Of a DNA stretch of 64,000 bases, positions 440 through 40,391 are shown in pieces. The position numbers were made by a program, and so were the translations under genes. Source of the stretch: Nitrospinaceae bacterium. Its GTDB lineage: Bacteria > UBA8248. The stretch covers positions 42,931-106,930 of the forward strand of contig JABJAL010000103.1 in assembly GCA_018669005.1 (NCBI GenBank), in the 5' to 3' direction. Position 1 is the first letter of the stretch, and each line of letters opens with the position of its first letter. The notes below the pieces were generated by a model. The model made no database searches. It had not been told where the DNA came from and saw only the letters and a list, made by a program, of their open reading frames with translations.

Positions 440-690
440 GGCAATACTGGGGCGGGAATCATCAAAATAGAATTCAGATGCTCTAACCGGGAATAATATA
501 GGTCCCAGAATCGTTCTCTCTCTTATAGCCTGATAATGGCGGCTTTTAGGAGAGAAAATATCCTAGGGGAGGGTGTGAAGCCGCATGATGGTGCCCCTAA
601 CGATAAAAAAGTCTTTTTTAAGGCGCTTTCCGCGTAGTGCGGGAGCGTTTAACCATGCAACCTTGATTTTTGGGAAAACGGAGGATACAC

Positions 691-960
691 ATGATGAAAA
701 TGCTCAAAGTTATGTTTCTGGGATTTGCCGTCACCTCGCTTCTTATGATTAGTGGCATTTCGGCGGAAGCGGCGTCCAACCCTTGCGCTGCGAAAAATCC
801 GTGCAATCCTTGCGCTGCGAAGAATCCTTGTGCCGCGAAGAATCCTTGTGCCGCGAAGAACCCTTGTGCCGCGAAGAACCCTTGCGCTGCCAAGAATCCC
901 TGTGCTGCGAAGAACCCTTGCGCCGCGAAGAATCCTTGCAACCCCTGCGCAAAAAAATAA
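691..960 (+). CDS. Secreted Cys-rich mini-protein made of NPCAAK hexapeptide repeats
   Basis: ATG 691 lies 5 nt after GGAGGA (680-685); the ORF-track TTG 670 is a less likely start. Signal peptide MMKMLKVMFLGFAVTSLLMISGISAEA, then NPCAAK-NPC-(NPCAAK)x7-NPC-NPCAKK. Repeat units differ only at synonymous positions. Confidence 0.8.
   Translation: MMKMLKVMFLGFAVTSLLMISGISAEAASNPCAAKNPCNPCAAKNPCAAKNPCAAKNPCAAKNPCAAKNPCAAKNPCAAKNPCNPCAKK
778..957 (+). repeat. In-frame 18-nt tandem repeat (nine full units plus two 9-nt half units) encoding NPCAAK
   Basis: Units of the form aa(t/c) cc(t/c/g) tg(c/t) gc(t/c/a) gc(g/c) aa(g/a). The other frames and strand yield the spurious repeat ORFs in the track (GFFAAQ, RILRGT and similar). 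Confidence 0.95.
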
Positions 961-1078: not shown

Positions 1079-2344
1079 ATGAAACGCCTCGGCATTTTAA
1101 GTTCTACTATTTTGGTTTTCTTGCTTGCGGGATTGAATTTTCAATTGCCAGTTCGTTTATCCTCTGCCGCCGAAAAAAAATCTATTTCGGCTTGGAAGTC
1201 TGCCGCTGAATTCGCGAAACAACATTGGCGTACACCAGTTCCTCCGATGGGGAAGGCTCCGGCGTCTCACAAAAAACGTGAGCGCTCCTTGCTTCCCGAG
1301 GATTGTGGTAGTTGCCATCCAGACCAATACAAGCAATGGAAAACGACACTTCATGCCGGAGCGATGAGCCCTGGTATTTACGGTCAGACCGTAGATCTGT
1401 GGGCAAATAATCCTGGTTCCGCTCAAAGTTGTAATGAGTGTCATGCACCGCTAGCCGAGCAGCAGAAAAAATCCCTGGCGGGCATCGGGCCTCTCGCTTC
1501 ATGGAAAAAGAATCCGGCTCATATATTGAAACTCGAAATGGCCGGGCTGGCTTGCGCTGCCTGCCATGTACGAAACTGGCGAGTCTACGGCCCCCCGAAG
1601 CGCGAAACAAAGGTCGGAATTAATGATGCAACATCAACCGGGGAGCACGGTGGGGTGGAGCGTACCCCGTTTTTTGAGCGCGCCGAGTTTTGTATGGGTT
1701 GTCATCAGTTCGAGGGCGGTGGGCCGAACGGAAAATCCATCCAGAATACCTATAATGAATGGAAGGCGAGTATCTGGGCCAAGGAGGGGGTTCAGTGTCA
1801 GAACTGCCATATGCCCAAGCGAGCACATCTTTGGCGCGGCATACACGATAAAGAAATGGCGCAGAGCGCTGTTACCCTGGATGTTGAACTCGAAGACAAA
1901 GCTCCTAAAGATATTGTCTCGGCCAAAATCATTCTTACCAACACGGGTGCTGGCCATTATTTTCCAACATACATCACGCCCTCGGTTGATGTTATCGCAT
2001 GGTTAGAGGACAAAAACGGAGCTGCCCTTCCGGGGAGCCAGGTGGTTGAGATTATTGAGCGGAAACTTTCTTCTGATTTTAGTCGCGAAATTTACGATAA
2101 ACGCATTCCCCCACAAGAAGCGTTCATCATGAACTATCGTCGGGGAAGGCCCCCTGAGGCCGCCACCCTTCGCGTTCGGGTACGTGTTCGACCTGATTCT
2201 TTCTATCTTGGATTTTTCAAAGCAACGCTCGGAGGCCGGGGACTTTCCAAAAAAGCAAGAAAACTCCTTGAGGAAGCCAAACGGCGTGCGGAAAATTCGC
2301 CGTTTGATATTTTCGATGATCGGATAGAACTGGATAAAGGGTAG
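1079..2344 (+). CDS. Pentahaem c-type cytochrome, periplasmic
   Basis: N-terminal signal/anchor MKRLGILSSTILVFLLAGLNF. Five CxxCH motifs are present: CGSCH, CNECH, CAACH, CMGCH, CQNCH. The C-terminal part has a TNTGAGHYFPT motif seen in multihaem cytochrome families. Confidence 0.85.
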   Translation: MKRLGILSSTILVFLLAGLNFQLPVRLSSAAEKKSISAWKSAAEFAKQHWRTPVPPMGKAPASHKKRERSLLPEDCGSCHPDQYKQWKTTLHAGAMSPGIYGQTVDLWANNPGSAQSCNECHAPLAEQQKKSLAGIGPLASWKKNPAHILKLEMAGLACAACHVRNWRVYGPPKRETKVGINDATSTGEHGGVERTPFFERAEFCMGCHQFEGGGPNGKSIQNTYNEWKASIWAKEGVQCQNCHMPKRAHLWRGIHDKEMAQSAVTLDVELEDKAPKDIVSAKIILTNTGAGHYFPTYITPSVDVIAWLEDKNGAALPGSQVVEIIERKLSSDFSREIYDKRIPPQEAFIMNYRRGRPPEAATLRVRVRVRPDSFYLGFFKATLGGRGLSKKARKLLEEAKRRAENSPFDIFDDRIELDKG

Positions 2345-4550: not shown

Positions 4551-5150
4551 TCACTCCTCTCTATCCTTTTTGAGACGCGAAAGTGCTGCTGTCAGTTCGG
4601 GCGACCCATCGGGTTCTTGCTCGACTATGCCGAAAGCGTAGTTTAGCCGGTTGGCGTAGGTGCGATAACTGGCGCAGGCAATGACATCGACTACATTGTC
4701 TTCGCTGAGCCCAACAGCGCGGAGGGTGTCAATATCGGCCTCTGCGATGGTATGGGGGCTCAGGGTGATTTTAAGGGCGAGCGCACAAATAGCCCGGTCA
4801 GCCCCATCAAGTATCCTTGCGTTTTCGGGGGAGAGTAGGACCTCGGCCAAATCGGCCTCCGAGGTGTTTTCGCTATGACCATGGAACGACCATCCGTGGT
4901 TAATCGCTCAGCCATATCAGCCGCCGTGAGCTGCGACGAAAAATGCTAGCATCTGCTCTCGCCGTACTCCTAGTGTGCTCCCCCCGTAGGCGGCGTTTCT
5001 GAGTGTTTCACGCCCCGAGAGGACTTCGGAACGCCGCCCGAGGGCAAGAAGAAATTTCGAGACGGGTCGGCCCCCGGCCCGAATTTTATCGATAATTTCC
5101 TTTGAGGCGCCTTTGGCTTCATCCAGTTTCATGGGGTGTATCCAGTTCAT
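4551..5150 (-). CDS. AhpD/carboxymuconolactone-decarboxylase-family peroxidase-related enzyme, candidate selenoprotein (UxxU)
   Basis: ORFs 4917-5150 and 4551-4850 are in the same frame. The join reads ...REQMLAFFVAAHGG-TGA-Y-G-TGA-AINHGWSFHG..., and the two TGAs (4919-4917, 4910-4908) sit exactly on the CxxCxxxH catalytic cysteines of this family. AGGAG lies 7 nt before ATG 5150. A SECIS-like hairpin follows. Confidence 0.6.
4878..4900 (-). other. SECIS-like stem-loop downstream of the in-frame TGA codons
   Basis: mRNA ACCACGGA-UGGUCGU-UCCAUGGU forms an 8-bp stem with one C.A mismatch and a 7-nt loop containing GGUC. It begins 8 nt after the second TGA and 17 nt after the first. Confidence 0.45.
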
Positions 5151-5579: not shown

Positions 5580-6443
5580 TCACTTTTCCTCACACATGCA
5601 TCGAAATCCAAATAGCAGGTGGCGAGCTCTCGGAGATCGGCCATGCCGCGAGGCGGCCCGAGTGATGCCCGGCTGATCGTCCCAAGAGCCCCCACCTTTC
5701 ATAACGCCCCGTCCAGGGTCAAAATCGCTCGAAGTCCACTCGAAAACGTTGCCCGCCATATCGAGAACCCCGTACGGGCTGGCACCCTTTGTGTAAGTGC
5801 CAATTGGGGTAGTTCCTTTGTGATGGTAGGCGTGATTTAAACGAGCGGGGTCGAATCGATTACCCCAAGGAAAATAAGCGCCTTGTGTGCCGCGAGCGGC
5901 TTTTTCCCACTCGGCCTCGGTGGGGAGGCGCAAGTGCTTGCCGCCGGATTTTCCCCTGCGCCAGGCGCACATGGCCTCGCCATCTAATCGACTGACGAGG
6001 ACGACGGGATGGCGCTCAAGGCCAGCAGGGTGGGTCGGTTTGCCGCCCGCGTCTTTTAACCATAGGTATCGGCGCACAGCCTTGTAGGGATGAACGAGAT
6101 ATCCTTGTCGCTGATAGTCTTCAGGGGAAATGAAAGGTGCAGGGTGGCCAGTCTCCCGAACAAAAAATTGATATTCGCTTTGGGTAACGAGATTCTTGTC
6201 GATGAAATAATTTTTTAAAAAGAGCTGTTTGCGGGGAAGTTCCCATGCATCAAACCATCGGCCTTTTCGTGCGGCGTTGCTGCCGATGCGGTAGGCGAGA
6301 TCCCTCTCGGCCCGGTCACTTCCCATCCAAAAATGTCCCGCTGGTATTTTGATGAGAGAGTTGTCGCCGCTGCAGGGTTCACCACTGACCATGCCAGGCA
6401 GGGAAATCCAAAAAAATAGCGCTACGGTTAATGCTGCCCTCAT
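5580..6443 (-). CDS. Formylglycine-generating-enzyme (SUMF1/FGE) family protein, secreted
   Basis: Signal peptide MRAALTVALFFWISLPGMVSG. Family motifs present: FWMGS, HPVVLVS, RLPTEAEWEKAARG, GNVFEWTSS, GGSW. Confidence 0.8.
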   Translation of the reverse strand: MRAALTVALFFWISLPGMVSGEPCSGDNSLIKIPAGHFWMGSDRAERDLAYRIGSNAARKGRWFDAWELPRKQLFLKNYFIDKNLVTQSEYQFFVRETGHPAPFISPEDYQRQGYLVHPYKAVRRYLWLKDAGGKPTHPAGLERHPVVLVSRLDGEAMCAWRRGKSGGKHLRLPTEAEWEKAARGTQGAYFPWGNRFDPARLNHAYHHKGTTPIGTYTKGASPYGVLDMAGNVFEWTSSDFDPGRGVMKGGGSWDDQPGITRAASRHGRSPRARHLLFGFRCMCEEK

Positions 6444-6480: not shown

Positions 6481-6936
6481 TTATCGTGCGTCTTGCACGA
6501 TTTTCGCGAAGATCACGTCAAGCTCGGCGGCCATTTTATCGAGGTCGGCGCTTCCGTAGGGACGGAAAACATCGCTCGGTTTTTTGTAGGTAATTGTCGC
6601 CGTGCCATCGGTATTTTCGTAAAGATAGATTCGAATCGGCGCCTCGATTCCCGCCGGTATGCTCGCCTGGAGCATTCGAACGGCAAAGCGTGGATGATAT
6701 ACACCAAAAACCCGGTTGCCCTTAATTTTAACGCCTATTGCCGCTGCACCATGCGTAGCACTCGCTTTGCTGACGAGTCCCATCTTGTTTTTCCTGATGG
6801 CGGCGGTTAGGTCTTTTTCTGTTTGAAGAAATGGCGCCTTGGTCTTGAAGCGAGGCATTTCACCGGTGTGGGCAGGGCTGGTCGTGAGCAGGGTAATTGA
6901 AAAGAACATGGCGAAAATAACGGCTAAATTACGCAT
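6481..6936 (-). CDS. DUF302 domain protein, secreted
   Basis: Signal peptide, then a GIEAPIRIYLYENTDGTATITYKKPS core typical of DUF302. Confidence 0.65.
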   Translation of the reverse strand: MRNLAVIFAMFFSITLLTTSPAHTGEMPRFKTKAPFLQTEKDLTAAIRKNKMGLVSKASATHGAAAIGVKIKGNRVFGVYHPRFAVRMLQASIPAGIEAPIRIYLYENTDGTATITYKKPSDVFRPYGSADLDKMAAELDVIFAKIVQDAR

Positions 6937-7064: not shown

Positions 7065-7661
7065 ATGCACACGAAAGTATTCCGTATTGCGGCACTCCTT
7101 TTTCTGATTGCCTTTTTTGCGATGGCGATAGAGCAGACCGCAACGGCGGCCCCAGTGTTCAACAAGCTTCTTCTTGCTCCCGAGGGCTCGACGCCACCCA
7201 AGGATTTTTCCTACCCGGCCCTTGATGGCAAAAAACGTACCTTGACCGAATTTCGGGGAAAGGTGGTTTTCCTCGTTTTTTTCGCCACCTGGTGTCCTTT
7301 ATGTAATGAGGAAATGCCCGCACTCGTTCGACTCTATGAAAAATACAAAGAGCGCGGGCTCACAGTGGTTGCCGTATCAATCGACCGTGCTCCGGTTTCT
7401 CTTGTTAAGGCTTGGAGCGCCTCTAAAAAGCTGACTTATCCTGTTCTCCACGACCAAAAGTTCGCATCGAGGCTTCGTTATAACATTCGAAATGTCCCGA
7501 CAATCTACGTTCTTGATCGAGATTTAAATCTTGCCGCCTGGACTGTGGGCCGCGTGAGCTGGAAGGGGAAAAAGGCGACCGCACTAATTGAAAAGCTTCT
7601 CGAAAAACGTACGACCTCCTCTCAGTGGCCCCCGGGAAAGAAAACTGCCAGCCTACGCTGA
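7065..7661 (+). CDS. TlpA/ResA-like thiol:disulfide oxidoreductase (redoxin), periplasmic
   Basis: Signal/anchor sequence followed by the thioredoxin-fold active site FFATWCPLCNEEMP. Confidence 0.8.
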   Translation: MHTKVFRIAALLFLIAFFAMAIEQTATAAPVFNKLLLAPEGSTPPKDFSYPALDGKKRTLTEFRGKVVFLVFFATWCPLCNEEMPALVRLYEKYKERGLTVVAVSIDRAPVSLVKAWSASKKLTYPVLHDQKFASRLRYNIRNVPTIYVLDRDLNLAAWTVGRVSWKGKKATALIEKLLEKRTTSSQWPPGKKTASLR

Positions 7662-22521: not shown

Positions 22522-22920
22522 ATGGACCTGGCCTTAGTTGGCATCATTGTGGCGATTTTCTTCGGTGTCATCGGTGTCCTTTTGACAATCGGCGGGTTCA
22601 TATTTTCACACCACCGAAGGGCGATGGAGCAACCCGAATCCCGAGAGGATTACATCCGCCGCCTGAATCATCCCGTTTATTTCCAGTTGCTCGAATCCTG
22701 TCTTGGCTGGATGGATGATTTTTTCGGCCCCCAGATGTCGCTACGCCCCTTTCGTTTCGAGTGGCGGGGTTTTTTCGTGTGCGAGGCCATTTCTCTTGGT
22801 TATGCCTACGCATCATTCGTCATTGGCTGGATGATGGGTGCGCCCGGCGCGCTGGGGAGAGTGTCGATGTTTTCCGATTCCGCACCGCTGGCTGGCTGCC
22901 GAACTGGCTTCGCGGGGTGA
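22522..22920 (+). CDS. Hypothetical membrane protein
   Basis: ATG 22522 follows GGGAGAG. One clear TM segment (LALVGIIVAIFFGVIGVLLTIGGFIF) is present. The stop overlaps GTG 22917 (GTGA). This may instead be the frameshifted 5' part of the next ORF. Confidence 0.45.
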   Translation: MDLALVGIIVAIFFGVIGVLLTIGGFIFSHHRRAMEQPESREDYIRRLNHPVYFQLLESCLGWMDDFFGPQMSLRPFRFEWRGFFVCEAISLGYAYASFVIGWMMGAPGALGRVSMFSDSAPLAGCRTGFAG

Positions 22921-23798
22921 TCATACTGGCGCTTCCGTTTGTGGTGTACTTTATTATCACAAGAGGGATTTCTGGAACAGAAAAAGTGGGGAAAAGATTC
23001 GGTCTGAAATTGTGGGGGCCGATGATGGGGTCTAGATTTTATCTCTTAGCCATAGCCATAGTCGTAGAGGTAGCCGTAGCCAGAGCCGGAGCCTTAGACA
23101 GAGCTGTAGCCAGCGGCGGAGCCGTAGCCGGAGCCTTAGCCGTAGCCGTAGCCGTAGCCTCAGCCTCAGCCTCTTATTTTAAAACGGGCATAATGGATGA
23201 TTATTCCATCACGGTCGTTTTATTTTTAGTTGTACTTCCTTTTCTGAACGGGGCGTGGGACTGGTTCTCGCTCAGCGTCAGCCGCTGTCTCGGGGAGGAT
23301 ATTCTCAAGCGAAGGTCCGGCTTGAGGGCGCTCGGTCTTGCTTTGCTCGATGTGGCCGCCGCCGTGTTTTTTCTCTTCACCCTCGCCGCCGTTTTGATTC
23401 TCGGAATAGAGACTCTTGTCTACTTTGCGGAGTGGGATTTTAACCTCCAAGATTTTCTGATTGTCGCCGCCACTGACCCCTGGGGCCAGGGATTCTGGGT
23501 CTCGTTCATGCTTTTGAGCACACTTGTACCCACGGCGGCGCATTTCGCCGTCGTGCTTTTCGGCGTTGTCCCCTCGCTGGGCTGGGGGTTTAGAGGCACT
23601 CTGACAGAGAAGATAAACGGCACCGAGTCCAGGTATCTTCTTCCCGCGGTTTATTTCGCCTTCTGGGGAATTGCCTCGGTGGCGATGGTGATAGCGGGGT
23701 TCTGGGTGGTATTCTGGGGCATCGGCAAGAGCGGGTATCCGGTATCGCAAATGCTTTTGGATTACGCGAATTGGATTCTGGACCTCATCGGCTCTTAG
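22917..23798 (+). CDS. Hypothetical polytopic membrane protein with (AV)n(AS)n low-complexity segment
   Basis: The frame is open from 22761, and the conservative start is GTG 22917, coupled to the upstream stop. Multiple TM segments are present. I recognise no family. Confidence 0.5.
   Translation: MIILALPFVVYFIITRGISGTEKVGKRFGLKLWGPMMGSRFYLLAIAIVVEVAVARAGALDRAVASGGAVAGALAVAVAVASASASYFKTGIMDDYSITVVLFLVVLPFLNGAWDWFSLSVSRCLGEDILKRRSGLRALGLALLDVAAAVFFLFTLAAVLILGIETLVYFAEWDFNLQDFLIVAATDPWGQGFWVSFMLLSTLVPTAAHFAVVLFGVVPSLGWGFRGTLTEKINGTESRYLLPAVYFAFWGIASVAMVIAGFWVVFWGIGKSGYPVSQMLLDYANWILDLIGS
23048..23173 (+). repeat. Imperfect hexanucleotide tandem repeat (gccgta / gcctca / gccata variants) inside a CDS
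   Basis: Reads ...gccatagccatagtcgtagaggtagccgtagccagagccggagcc...gccgtagccgtagccgtagcctcagcctcagcctc. It encodes AIAIVVEVAVARAGA...ALAVAVAVASASAS. Confidence 0.85.
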
Positions 23799-39869: not shown

Positions 39870-40391
39870 CTACCGCGATTTTTTCTTCGCGGTTTTTCGT
39901 TTCGTTGCCTTTTTAGCTGTTTTTTTCTTGACCACCTTCCGGGCTGTTGTTTTTTTTGCCACTTTTTTCTTGGTGGTCTTTTTGGCTGCTTTTTTCTTTG
40001 TAATTTTTTTTGCCTTGGGCTTTGCGCCTCCTTGTTTGATTCCGTGAATTCCCCACGAGGCGTCTTTTGTTGTGATGAAGATATGGTCTTCATCACCCAG
40101 TACAGTTGCGCTGTGTATCGCGTTTGCGGGTGTGTGGATAATGTCCCCGCGTTTTGCGATTTTTACTTTGCCGTTGATGGTCATGCGAACGCGGCCTTGG
40201 AGGACATAGCTGAACTGCTCGTTCGGATGGCTATGGGGCTCAGCTTTTGTTCCGGCGGGAATCGTGATTTTGCCGAAAATCAGACGCTCGCCCTCGATGA
40301 AGGGACCGTGCGCCGTGGAGTAGTCACCCCCGGCGTGGCGCGCCTTCATGGTCTTCGTGTTGTGAACGTATGATTTATATCTTTTTACCAT
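39870..40391 (-). CDS. Cupin protein with Lys/Ala/Thr-rich histone-H1-like C-terminal tail
   Basis: ATG 40391 lies 5 nt after GAGGAA. It has the same cupin module as the bicupin (EGERLIFGKITIPAGTKAEPHSHPNEQ), then GGAKPKAKKITKKKAAKKTTKKKVAKKTTARKVVKKKTAKKATKRKTAKKKSR. Confidence 0.75.
   Translation of the reverse strand: MVKRYKSYVHNTKTMKARHAGGDYSTAHGPFIEGERLIFGKITIPAGTKAEPHSHPNEQFSYVLQGRVRMTINGKVKIAKRGDIIHTPANAIHSATVLGDEDHIFITTKDASWGIHGIKQGGAKPKAKKITKKKAAKKTTKKKVAKKTTARKVVKKKTAKKATKRKTAKKKSR

Follow-up and report, generated by a model that had tools for sequence, protein, structure and literature searches.

An Asn-Pro-Cys repeat module of exported bacterial proteins, its haem partners and its possible role as a thiolate carrier

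The repeat gene in the window and the selection acting on it

The stretch of DNA analysed here, 64 kb of contig JABJAL010000103.1 and referred to as the window, carries near its beginning a short gene (691-960, forward strand) whose exported product consists almost entirely of Asn-Pro-Cys (NPC) units. The open reading frame (ORF) extends from an ATG at 691 to a TAA at 958-960 and encodes 89 amino acids (aa), namely MMKMLKVMFLGFAVTSLLMISGISAEA, followed by AS and by NPCAAK NPC (NPCAAK)x7 NPC NPCAKK, with 11 Cys. A terminator and the gene of a pentahaem cytochrome c lie downstream of it.

680-684, forward strand: Shine-Dalgarno sequence GGAGG, 6 nucleotides (nt) 5' of the ATG, read from the sequence
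691-771, forward strand: predicted Sec-type signal peptide of the NPC gene, read from the sequence
772-960, forward strand: mature chain (AS and the repeat units given above) and stop codon
990-1029, forward strand: intrinsic terminator with a 15-bp G+C-rich stem, a 3-nt loop and a T7 run (hairpin 990-1022 plus T-run)
1079-2344, forward strand: periplasmic pentahaem cytochrome c of 421 aa, with a signal peptide, exactly five CxxCH motifs and a C-terminal non-haem domain

The protein described in a first-pass annotation of this DNA, an 89-aa repeat protein with 11 Cys behind a signal peptide, was confirmed from the sequence. The signal peptide has Lys in its n-region, a hydrophobic core 17 residues long and, for cleavage, the motif A-x-A (here A-E-A), and this architecture is shared by 39 aligned homologues. 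The mature chain of 62 residues contains 11 Cys and 10 Lys and is free of acidic, aromatic and His residues; the annotation had allowed it only N, P, C, A and K, overlooking the Ala-Ser before the first unit and hence one Ser. The gene indeed has its own Shine-Dalgarno sequence, and the block GGAGGAT is kept among the Nitrospinota orthologues. The terminator deserves its description as very strong, the 85-nt stretch folding with -38.5 kcal/mol (z = -5.3; none of 200 shuffles was equal), and a hairpin occupies the same place between the NPC gene and the cytochrome in three other Nitrospinota loci (L013, L014 and L015). The cytochrome ORF begins 49 nt past the T-run and bears a signal peptide, as had been stated.

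Tandem Repeats Finder reports a period of 18 for the NPC gene, with 7.5 copies, 87% matches and a score of 186. The units differ from each other only by synonymous changes at third positions, which had been noted before, with the exception of the C-terminal AKK. The same NPC protein was found on at least 23 metagenomic contigs, and the DNA of L001-L006 is identical to that of the window. Given that identical copies are uninformative on selection, more distant Nitrospinota orthologues were taken instead, and L013, L014 and L015, all loci of metagenome-assembled genomes, were aligned with the window through the gene. Synonymous and non-synonymous differences in the repeat codons numbered 28 and 0 for L013, 32 and 3 for L015, and 27 and 4 for L014. 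The signal peptide, unlike the repeats, evolves freely, with approximately 10 synonymous and 10 non-synonymous differences from the orthologues. Insertions and deletions among the Nitrospinota orthologues measure 9, 15, 18 or 27 nt, all multiples of 3, and this comparison of repeat number and codon changes in relatives, which the annotation had proposed, revealed neither frame-shifting copy changes nor loss of the frame. The NPC gene is real, and it is the peptide sequence, not merely a DNA repeat, that is under purifying selection, as had been suspected, rather than chance or slippage noise that is being seen. The mirror-symmetric layout of the units is present in the window as described; it is not kept in the orthologues and is therefore probably incidental.

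The divergent intergenic region 5' of the NPC gene (310-690) is unusually long (380 nt) and contains two short inverted repeats recognised by eye (approximately 566-600 and 632-656) as well as a weak sigma-70-like site (366-393). Rfam, applied to the whole window with gathering thresholds and to 250-1120 with E <= 1, gave no match, and no riboswitch or small RNA was found by it in this spacer. A second NPC-rich ORF does not occur elsewhere in the window. Two other coding repeats appear unrelated to the NPC gene: a 6-nt period of approximately 19 copies at 23045-23173, which encodes an Ala/Val/Ser-rich stretch in the membrane-protein-like ORF 22761-23798, and a pair of 27-nt repeats at 39908-40014.

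Spread of the NPC module and its partners

As the annotation had supposed, the repeat belongs to no named family: Pfam (PF10048 included) and NCBIfam scans of the NPC peptide gave no match, and literature searches for NPCAAK-type strings yielded no relevant paper in the library searched. A search of 5.8 billion proteins returned 537 NPC clusters at E < 0.01, and a collection of one genome per species holds at least 501 confirmed NPC stretches. Among the matches listed, the hosts include Nitrospinota (best matches), Rokubacteria, Methylomirabilia, Nitrosomonas, Methylotenera, Gallionella, tubeworm endosymbionts, Motiliproteus, Marinobacter, Hahella, Psychromonas, Stutzerimonas, Terasakiella, many Alphaproteobacteria and two cyanobacteria. 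Examples of carriers in culture are Stutzerimonas stutzeri CLN100, Marinobacter alexandrii LZ-8, Hahella sp. SMD15-11, Psychromonas sp. KJ10-2, Terasakiella brassicae and Motiliproteus sp. MSK22-1.

Composition and spacing were determined for 229 distinct NPC proteins. The invariant of the repeat is Asn-Pro-Cys, with N at 85% and P at 89%, and successive Cys are spaced by 6 residues in 63%, by 3 in 18% and by 5 in 13%. The arms consist of 25% Ala, 19% Cys, 18% Pro, 17% Asn and 11% Lys, with 0.5% Asp plus Glu and 0.5% His. Stand-alone members have an even number of Cys in 79 cases and an odd number in 77, and the AlphaFold2 model of the window peptide (39-sequence alignment) reached a predicted local distance difference test (pLDDT) score of 49.7 and showed no secondary structure. 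The disulfide ladder that the annotation had considered is unlikely for these reasons, and both it and a beta-helix were rejected in view of the modelled disorder, the variable unit length of 3, 5 or 6 residues and the random Cys parity; the hexapeptide beta-helix family (PF00132) in particular gave no Pfam match, and the model contained no strands. From the model, a disordered, polycationic thiol string is the most apt description of the product. The NPC repeat is thus an unnamed, widespread module, mostly fused to periplasmic haem domains, and the window gene is its free-standing form. It merits a family model, the genes being now called 'hypothetical' or overlooked.

For the neighbourhood survey, ORFs were called in 83 non-redundant NPC loci and clustered with the repeats masked. 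ORF calling was noisy in high-G+C soil contigs, and only homology-confirmed families were counted, as follows.

NPC-flanked SoxA-like cytochrome: 39 of 83 loci
DUF6969: 31 loci
Histidine kinases: 18 loci
YeeE/YedE/TsuA-like transporter: 18 loci
Homologues of the window pentahaem cytochrome, within 10 kb, window included: 16 loci
NPC-flanked cytochrome P460: 14 loci
Exported protein of 150-170 aa without a Pfam match: 11 loci
Extracytoplasmic function (ECF) sigma factor: 11 loci
DUF3179: 11 loci
TlpA/redoxin: 10 loci
DedA: 10 loci
Exported protein resembling formylglycine-generating enzyme (FGE): 10 loci
DUF302: 7 loci

A haem partner was present in 59 of the 83 loci. The NPC stretches flank, usually on both sides, a mono-haem domain of approximately 120 aa with matches to SoxA-TsdA_cyt-c and CCP_MauG; other fusion partners are cytochrome P460, a second type of cytochrome c, a small beta domain without a family match, the bufferin BufA1 (which carries an NPC tail) and a YHS (seleno)protein domain (which carries an NPC head). 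The next same-strand gene of the 46 stand-alone NPC genes encodes a haem protein in 17 cases, namely an NPC-tailed cytochrome c (11), an NPC-tailed P460 (4) or the pentahaem cytochrome (2), and DUF6969 in 7 others. The search for NPC repeats together with cytochromes that the annotation had recommended found co-occurrence, with the pentahaem homologues in the 16 loci given above, and the adjacency of the two genes in the window is not accidental. Two gene orders are typical: TlpA, NPC, cytochrome-NPC, pentahaem cytochrome, exported protein and YeeE, or NPC, cytochrome-NPC and DUF6969. TlpA lies directly upstream of the NPC gene in the Motiliproteus loci, and Trx with CcdA stands beside it in some others. 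The exported protein of 150-170 aa (motifs TQTPCQFLE ... YSCPLNPTxDY; L041 8879-9394, L007 5229-5687 and 9 other loci) is encoded between the pentahaem cytochrome and the YeeE-like transporter and has no match in Pfam or NCBIfam.

The cassette of the window is a reduced one, comprising NPC, the pentahaem cytochrome and the first three genes below, and no other cassette member was found in the 64 kb.

5580-6443, reverse strand: exported FGE-sulfatase-domain protein (PF03781, 2.3e-38)
6481-6936, reverse strand: exported DUF302 protein (PF03625)
7065-7661, forward strand: TlpA/ResA-type thiol:disulfide oxidoreductase with WCPLC, membrane-anchored or exported (ResA 6e-27, TlpA 1.5e-18)
4551-5150, reverse strand: AhpD/CMD 'peroxidase-related enzyme' gene, split by two in-frame TGA codons at both Cys positions of its CxxC

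The TlpA/ResA-type protein is a candidate reductant for the Cys arms. DUF302 also follows an NPC-type gene on a Skermanella plasmid, and it has been found inside soxXYZA-DUF302-B clusters (PMC5037610). The FGE-like protein, as read from its sequence, lacks the two catalytic Cys that genuine formylglycine-generating enzymes possess, and is the commonest other neighbour of the pentahaem family in metagenomes, even where no NPC gene is present. In the AhpD/CMD gene, the split site reads ...AAHGG-TGA-Y-G-TGA-AINHG..., and with TGA read as Cys the product of 199 aa matches TIGR01926 along the full length (80.9 bits, with a cutoff of 81.8). The gene may encode a rare UxxU double-selenocysteine protein, or else be a pseudogene; a hairpin 3' of the TGA codons is present without being significant (z = -1.3), and no tRNA-Sec was found in the window.

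The window cytochrome contains no Cys outside its five CxxCH motifs. Its best match in the PDB is 5ZE8, the pentahaem c552 of T. tepidum (E 8.5e-9), with an alignment that reaches the C-terminal domain, and among the NCBIfam models ExtKL fits it best (1.3e-17; 63.6 bits, where the cutoff is 250). By these matches it is a member of the c552/ExtKL superfamily. ExtKL is MccSep, a periplasmic reductase of polysulfide and selenite with a His/Cys-ligated haem and selenocysteine (Sec), the hallmarks being a conserved distal Cys ligand of haem 2 (C239) and U325 (bioRxiv 10.1101/2025.11.18.688581). The window cytochrome shares with it the periplasmic location, the five CxxCH motifs and a C-terminal beta (Ig-like) domain. 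In contrast to MccSep, however, the window protein and 48 of 50 relatives contain no Cys or Sec outside the haem motifs, so that the His/Cys haem ligand and U325 are missing and we regard it as a superfamily relative rather than an MccSep.

The reverse test started from relatives of the pentahaem cytochrome with 41-62% identity, encoded in 80 metagenomic loci; an NPC-rich ORF was present on 18 of the 80 contigs, and it lay directly upstream on the same strand in 12 of the 64 loci having at least 600 nt of upstream sequence. The pairing of NPC and pentahaem genes is thus real but facultative. Additional Cys were absent from 12 of 13 pentahaem relatives with an NPC neighbour and from 36 of 37 without one, and this near equality makes the comparison uninformative on whether Cys is supplied in trans. 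In high-G+C soil relatives of the cytochrome (L128, L130, L139, L143 and L162-L164), which have no NPC gene, a conserved methyltransferase-like gene follows. A further gene that follows in these soil loci may encode a gamma-glutamyltranspeptidase, which it resembles by eye in its N-terminal sequence, and the loci may represent another thiol-related context.

The NPC-flanked mono-haem domain matches PF21342 (SoxA-TsdA_cyt-c) with 5.5e-5 (23.5 bits, cutoff 27) and the SoxA model TIGR04484 with 7e-5, and contains an invariant Cys in an EMVQxC motif. A HMMER alignment to the SoxA structure 1H31, weak with an E-value of 0.15, places this Cys on Cys114, with YPxxV and EQMxxxC in register. We take Cys114, by count, to be the haem-1 thiolate ligand of SoxA. 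Enzymes of the SoxA family oxidatively join thiosulfate to another thiolate, which is located on the flexible arm of SoxY (PMC4423706).

DUF6969 has 5,429 relatives at E < 1e-10 and is a cytoplasmic protein without a signal peptide, with an invariant His cluster (YYYHxH...EHGHFH). Examples are encoded at L007 7340-8041, L093 3620-4351, L175 7004-7732 and L177 5962-6684. Its AlphaFold2 model is confident (pLDDT 88; predicted template modelling score, pTM, 0.89), and Foldseek against the PDB gave no match with E < 0.3, a profile search of PDB sequences nothing below E 0.09, and literature searches no relevant paper. DUF6969 adjoins secreted Cys-repeat genes of four repeat sequences (NPCAAK, ANPCAxK, APCAAG and KCAP): ANPCAxK is found on the Skermanella plasmid, where DUF302, a sigma factor and NrsF follow, and APCAAG on pSymA of S. 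meliloti. BufA1 with its NPC tail is part of a DUF6969-BufA1-MNIO-HvfC-DoxX operon. DUF6969 may be an enzyme that modifies the repeats, or it may handle in the cytoplasm the cargo captured by the arm.

The (KCAP)n variant is encoded with DUF6969 on plasmid bglu_2p of Burkholderia glumae BGR1 (L177; NC_012718.1 118409-131053). The cassette also contains ArsS radical SAM, methylthioadenosine (MTA) phosphorylase (MTAP), two 'arsenosugar biosynthesis' glycosyltransferases, Trx with CcdA, an ECF sigma factor with a zf-HC2 anti-sigma factor (ZAS), an MFS transporter and a DedA-FAD oxidoreductase, which hints at an arsenic or selenium link. Such a link is rare in the NPC loci, ArsS-like genes occurring in 3 of 83 and TIGR04282-like glycosyltransferases in 2 of 83.

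A possible carrier of sulfur-type substrates and the rival explanations

The annotation had considered a binder of metals, a carrier of sulfur or metalloids and a redox partner of the cytochrome, and among these the genomic context tends to favour sulfur-type chemistry involving haem partners. The reading that we favour, tentatively and as quite possible rather than probable, is that haem proteins which handle a thiophilic, probably sulfur-type, substrate are served in the periplasm by the NPC protein as a disordered poly-thiolate carrier or substrate arm. This would account for the fusions to haem domains, the relatives resembling SoxA and MccSep, the presence of a YeeE-like transporter, of DUF302 and of TlpA, and the disordered and polycationic nature of the arm. 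Proteins of the YeeE type import thiosulfate or sulfur, including in the role of SoxT (PMC11582611).

According to this proposal, the NPC thiolates would serve as covalent carrier or acceptor sites for the thiophilic substrate, most likely sulfane sulfur or a thiosulfonate, with selenium or arsenic species being possible. The arm would be flexible, given that N-P-C is its sole invariant, the Cys spacing is 6, 5 or 3 and the pLDDT is low. The Lys-rich polycation may lower the thiol pKa and draw anions such as polysulfide, thiosulfate or selenite. The arm would hand its substrate to partner c-type cytochromes or take it from them, the partner in the window being the adjacent pentahaem cytochrome, and a TlpA-type periplasmic thioredoxin would restore the free thiols. 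The strong terminator behind the small gene might provide for an excess of the peptide over the cytochrome. We infer from sequence and gene context what chemistry the thiols perform, which substrate they carry, in which direction electrons flow and what the terminator does. A bolder version, which we consider rather unlikely as a whole, would see a distinct modular system in which disordered Asn-Pro-Cys arms, free or joined to both ends of haem-thiolate and other periplasmic cytochromes, shuttle covalently bound sulfane sulfur, selenium or arsenic among haem sites, the YeeE-like importer and DUF6969; in the window, the thiolates of the peptide would then replace in trans the Cys/Sec chemistry that MccSep has in cis.

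Several points weigh against the carrier proposal. Sulfur lithotrophy is not known from the probable host phylum, the nitrite-oxidising Nitrospinota. No canonical genes of the sox, dsr, sqr or psr type were found among the NPC neighbourhoods, and the SoxA-like cytochrome, the YeeE-like transporter and DUF6969 were not found in the window. The pentahaem cytochrome does not contain the Cys ligand and Sec which define MccSep catalysis, most of its relatives have no NPC gene on their (short) contigs, and the similarity of the mono-haem domain to SoxA is weak (E approximately 1e-4 to the family models, 0.15 to 1H31). Furthermore, the bufferin fusion in a copper-type operon, the YHS fusion, and the links to ECF sigma factors with NrsF or ZAS anti-sigma factors would suit a function in metal handling or stress equally well, and a variant of the repeat belongs to an arsenosugar cassette.

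Such observations are the basis of the most serious competitor, in which the protein is a periplasmic sponge similar to metallothionein that buffers Cu(I), Hg(II), Cd(II) or As(III), while the haem partners, if they are involved, change only the redox state of the ion. Its composition (19% Cys, 11% Lys, no aromatic residues, 0.5% His) is indeed metallothionein-like, CNPC is a CxxC motif, and the NPC head on a YHS-type domain fits as well. The NPC tail on BufA1 in an MNIO-HvfC-DoxX operon points in the same direction, since bufferins chelate copper (PMC11626156, PMC12452194), as do the ECF sigma factors in 11 of 83 loci, some with NrsF or zf-HC2 anti-sigma factors, a Nitrosomonas NPC locus 6 kb from a mer operon and the (KCAP)n variant in the arsenosugar cassette. 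However, among the clusters occurring in at least 4 of 83 loci, P-type ATPases, RND/CusABC, multicopper oxidases, CopCD, Ars or Mer were not recurrent, MNIO is adjacent in just 2 of 83, and the dominant partners are haem proteins and a transporter of sulfur/selenium type. A polycation of +10 without carboxylates or His is also no obvious trap for cations. We therefore consider a metal sponge possible but somewhat unlikely.

The thiols could also act as a sacrificial periplasmic redox buffer which absorbs HOCl, H2O2, NO or peroxynitrite, or which is oxidised via the haem domains, with regeneration by proteins of the TlpA/CcdA type; the NPC protein would then be a Cys analogue of MrpX. TlpA/redoxin or Trx with CcdA adjoining NPC genes, AhpD/CMD-type genes adjacent in the window and in Nitrosomonas, and ECF sigma factors with a short ZAS anti-sigma factor or NrsF are consistent with this. 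Among the fused haem domains there is a likeness to the peroxidatic N-terminal haem domain of CCP/MauG/MbnH, the fused cytochrome P460 is a binder of NO and NH2OH, and many hosts belong to the nitrogen cycle (Nitrospinota, Nitrosomonas, Methylomirabilia and denitrifiers). This leaves the links to DUF6969, the YeeE-like transporter and DUF302 unexplained, though, and periplasmic peroxiredoxin or Msr does not recur in the neighbourhoods. The strict Asn-Pro before each Cys likewise exceeds the needs of a simple thiol sink, and we regard this function as quite improbable.

A little less probable still is that the Cys repeats are altered in the cytoplasm before Sec export, with DUF6969 as the candidate enzyme and a modified metallophore or cofactor-like polymer as the product. 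DUF6969 is the tightest-linked non-haem neighbour (31 of 83 loci), it is cytoplasmic with an invariant His cluster, and it stays beside ANPCAxK, APCAAG, KCAP and BufA1-NPC repeats. A small precursor-like gene with a strong terminator would be typical of operons for peptides made by the ribosome and modified after translation (RiPPs), and RiPPs with a Sec signal have a precedent in the oxazolins with their EGKCG motif (PMC12452194). On the other hand, DUF6969, MNIO or another candidate modifying enzyme was not found in the window, and DUF6969 has no relative by fold or family that would suggest catalysis. Large folded haem proteins, to which NPC stretches are attached as well, would make unlikely RiPP substrates, and the Azospirillum DUF6969 loci show no Cys-repeat ORF. 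The precursor peptide that the annotation had listed does not hold in its classical MNIO form: MNIO, DUF2063 and DoxX do not occur in the 64 kb, and MNIO occurs in 2 of 83 loci. An MNIO-type RiPP at the window locus was rejected, as MNIO, HvfC and DoxX of L093 gave no match when used as tblastn queries on the 64 kb, and none of them is among the Pfam matches of the window's own locus.

Finally, a low-complexity spacer or disulfide cross-linked structural filler without chemistry of its own, which the frequent use of Ala/Pro/Lys-rich repeats as periplasmic linkers and the position of the module at protein termini might suggest, is hardly credible given the very strong purifying selection on each unit residue (28:0), the invariance of N-P-C across phyla, the wide occurrence of free-standing genes of the repeat alone and the random Cys parity.

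If the arms do carry sulfur, selenium or arsenic, they would represent a new and very widespread periplasmic carrier logic, spanning Nitrospinota, Rokubacteria, NC10, nitrifiers, tubeworm symbionts and many marine Proteobacteria. It would join SoxA-like mono-haem, P460-like and Cys-free pentahaem c552-type cytochromes, which are orphan or poorly understood, and provide the first functional handle on DUF6969 and DUF302. It could also bring to light hidden reactions of sulfur or metalloids in the nitrite oxidisers that inhabit oxygen-deficient waters. If the protein were a metal sponge instead, it would be a new type of exported bacterial metallothionein.

Comparison with known systems

In its logic the NPC cassette recalls the Sox system, but its carrier arm is repeated many times over and in many cases forms one chain with the enzyme. 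In SoxY/SoxAX, a periplasmic Cys thiolate on a flexible segment is conjugated with sulfur by a Cys-ligated c-type cytochrome (PMC4423706), and the same is proposed here for the NPC arm; the helpers near NPC genes, a YeeE-like permease, DUF302 and periplasmic thioredoxin/CcdA, are similar. However, SoxY has one carrier Cys (in GGCGG), is folded (Ig-like) and is paired with SoxZ, whereas NPC proteins have at least 11 Cys, are predicted to be disordered and are often fused to cytochromes. Family scans and neighbourhoods gave no SoxY match for the NPC peptide and no SoxZ-like neighbour, SoxB or SoxCD. The arm may further be likened to Sud, a periplasmic polysulfide-sulfur transferase which serves polysulfide reductase.

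With metallothioneins, the NPC arm has in common a composition rich in Cys and Lys and free of aromatic residues. Metallothioneins of bacteria reside in the cytoplasm, however, and fold around Zn/Cd clusters. Compared with SmtA/BmtA, the NPC protein has an export signal, no His and no family match. SmbP of Nitrosomonas europaea and SilE/PcoE are small periplasmic low-complexity metal-binding repeat proteins, and SmbP and SilE use His/Met, not Cys. In the family scans the NPC peptide showed no relationship in sequence to metallothioneins or to these repeat proteins. MrpX is reportedly a Met-rich periplasmic peptide of perchlorate reducers, described by Melnyk et al. in 2015 in mBio. It is encoded with a dedicated periplasmic reductase and ECF sigma/NrsF and recycled by MsrP/YedY, and is not known to be linked to cytochromes, DUF6969 or YeeE. 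The likeness consists in a short exported peptide dominated by one redox-active residue and in NrsF, which also stands beside one NPC-type gene.

Bacterial transferase hexapeptide proteins have an aliphatic core residue and form a left-handed beta-helix, whereas the NPC repeat shows neither a match to this family nor strands. Bufferins and oxazolins share with it the small size, the Sec signal peptide, repeated Cys motifs, a variable repeat number and stress-type regulators nearby. The window, in contrast to them, has no MNIO, DUF2063 or DoxX, and the partners of NPC are haem proteins and DUF6969. NPCAAK also differs, in a comparison by eye, from the signatures Buf_6/12Cys, EGKCG and CxxxxC (PMC12452194), and no DUF2282/BufA1 match was obtained. 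By these comparisons the NPC peptide is distinct from bufferins and oxazolins, SoxY, metallothioneins and hexapeptide beta-helices, and we place it with the exported Cys-rich carrier or chelator peptides.

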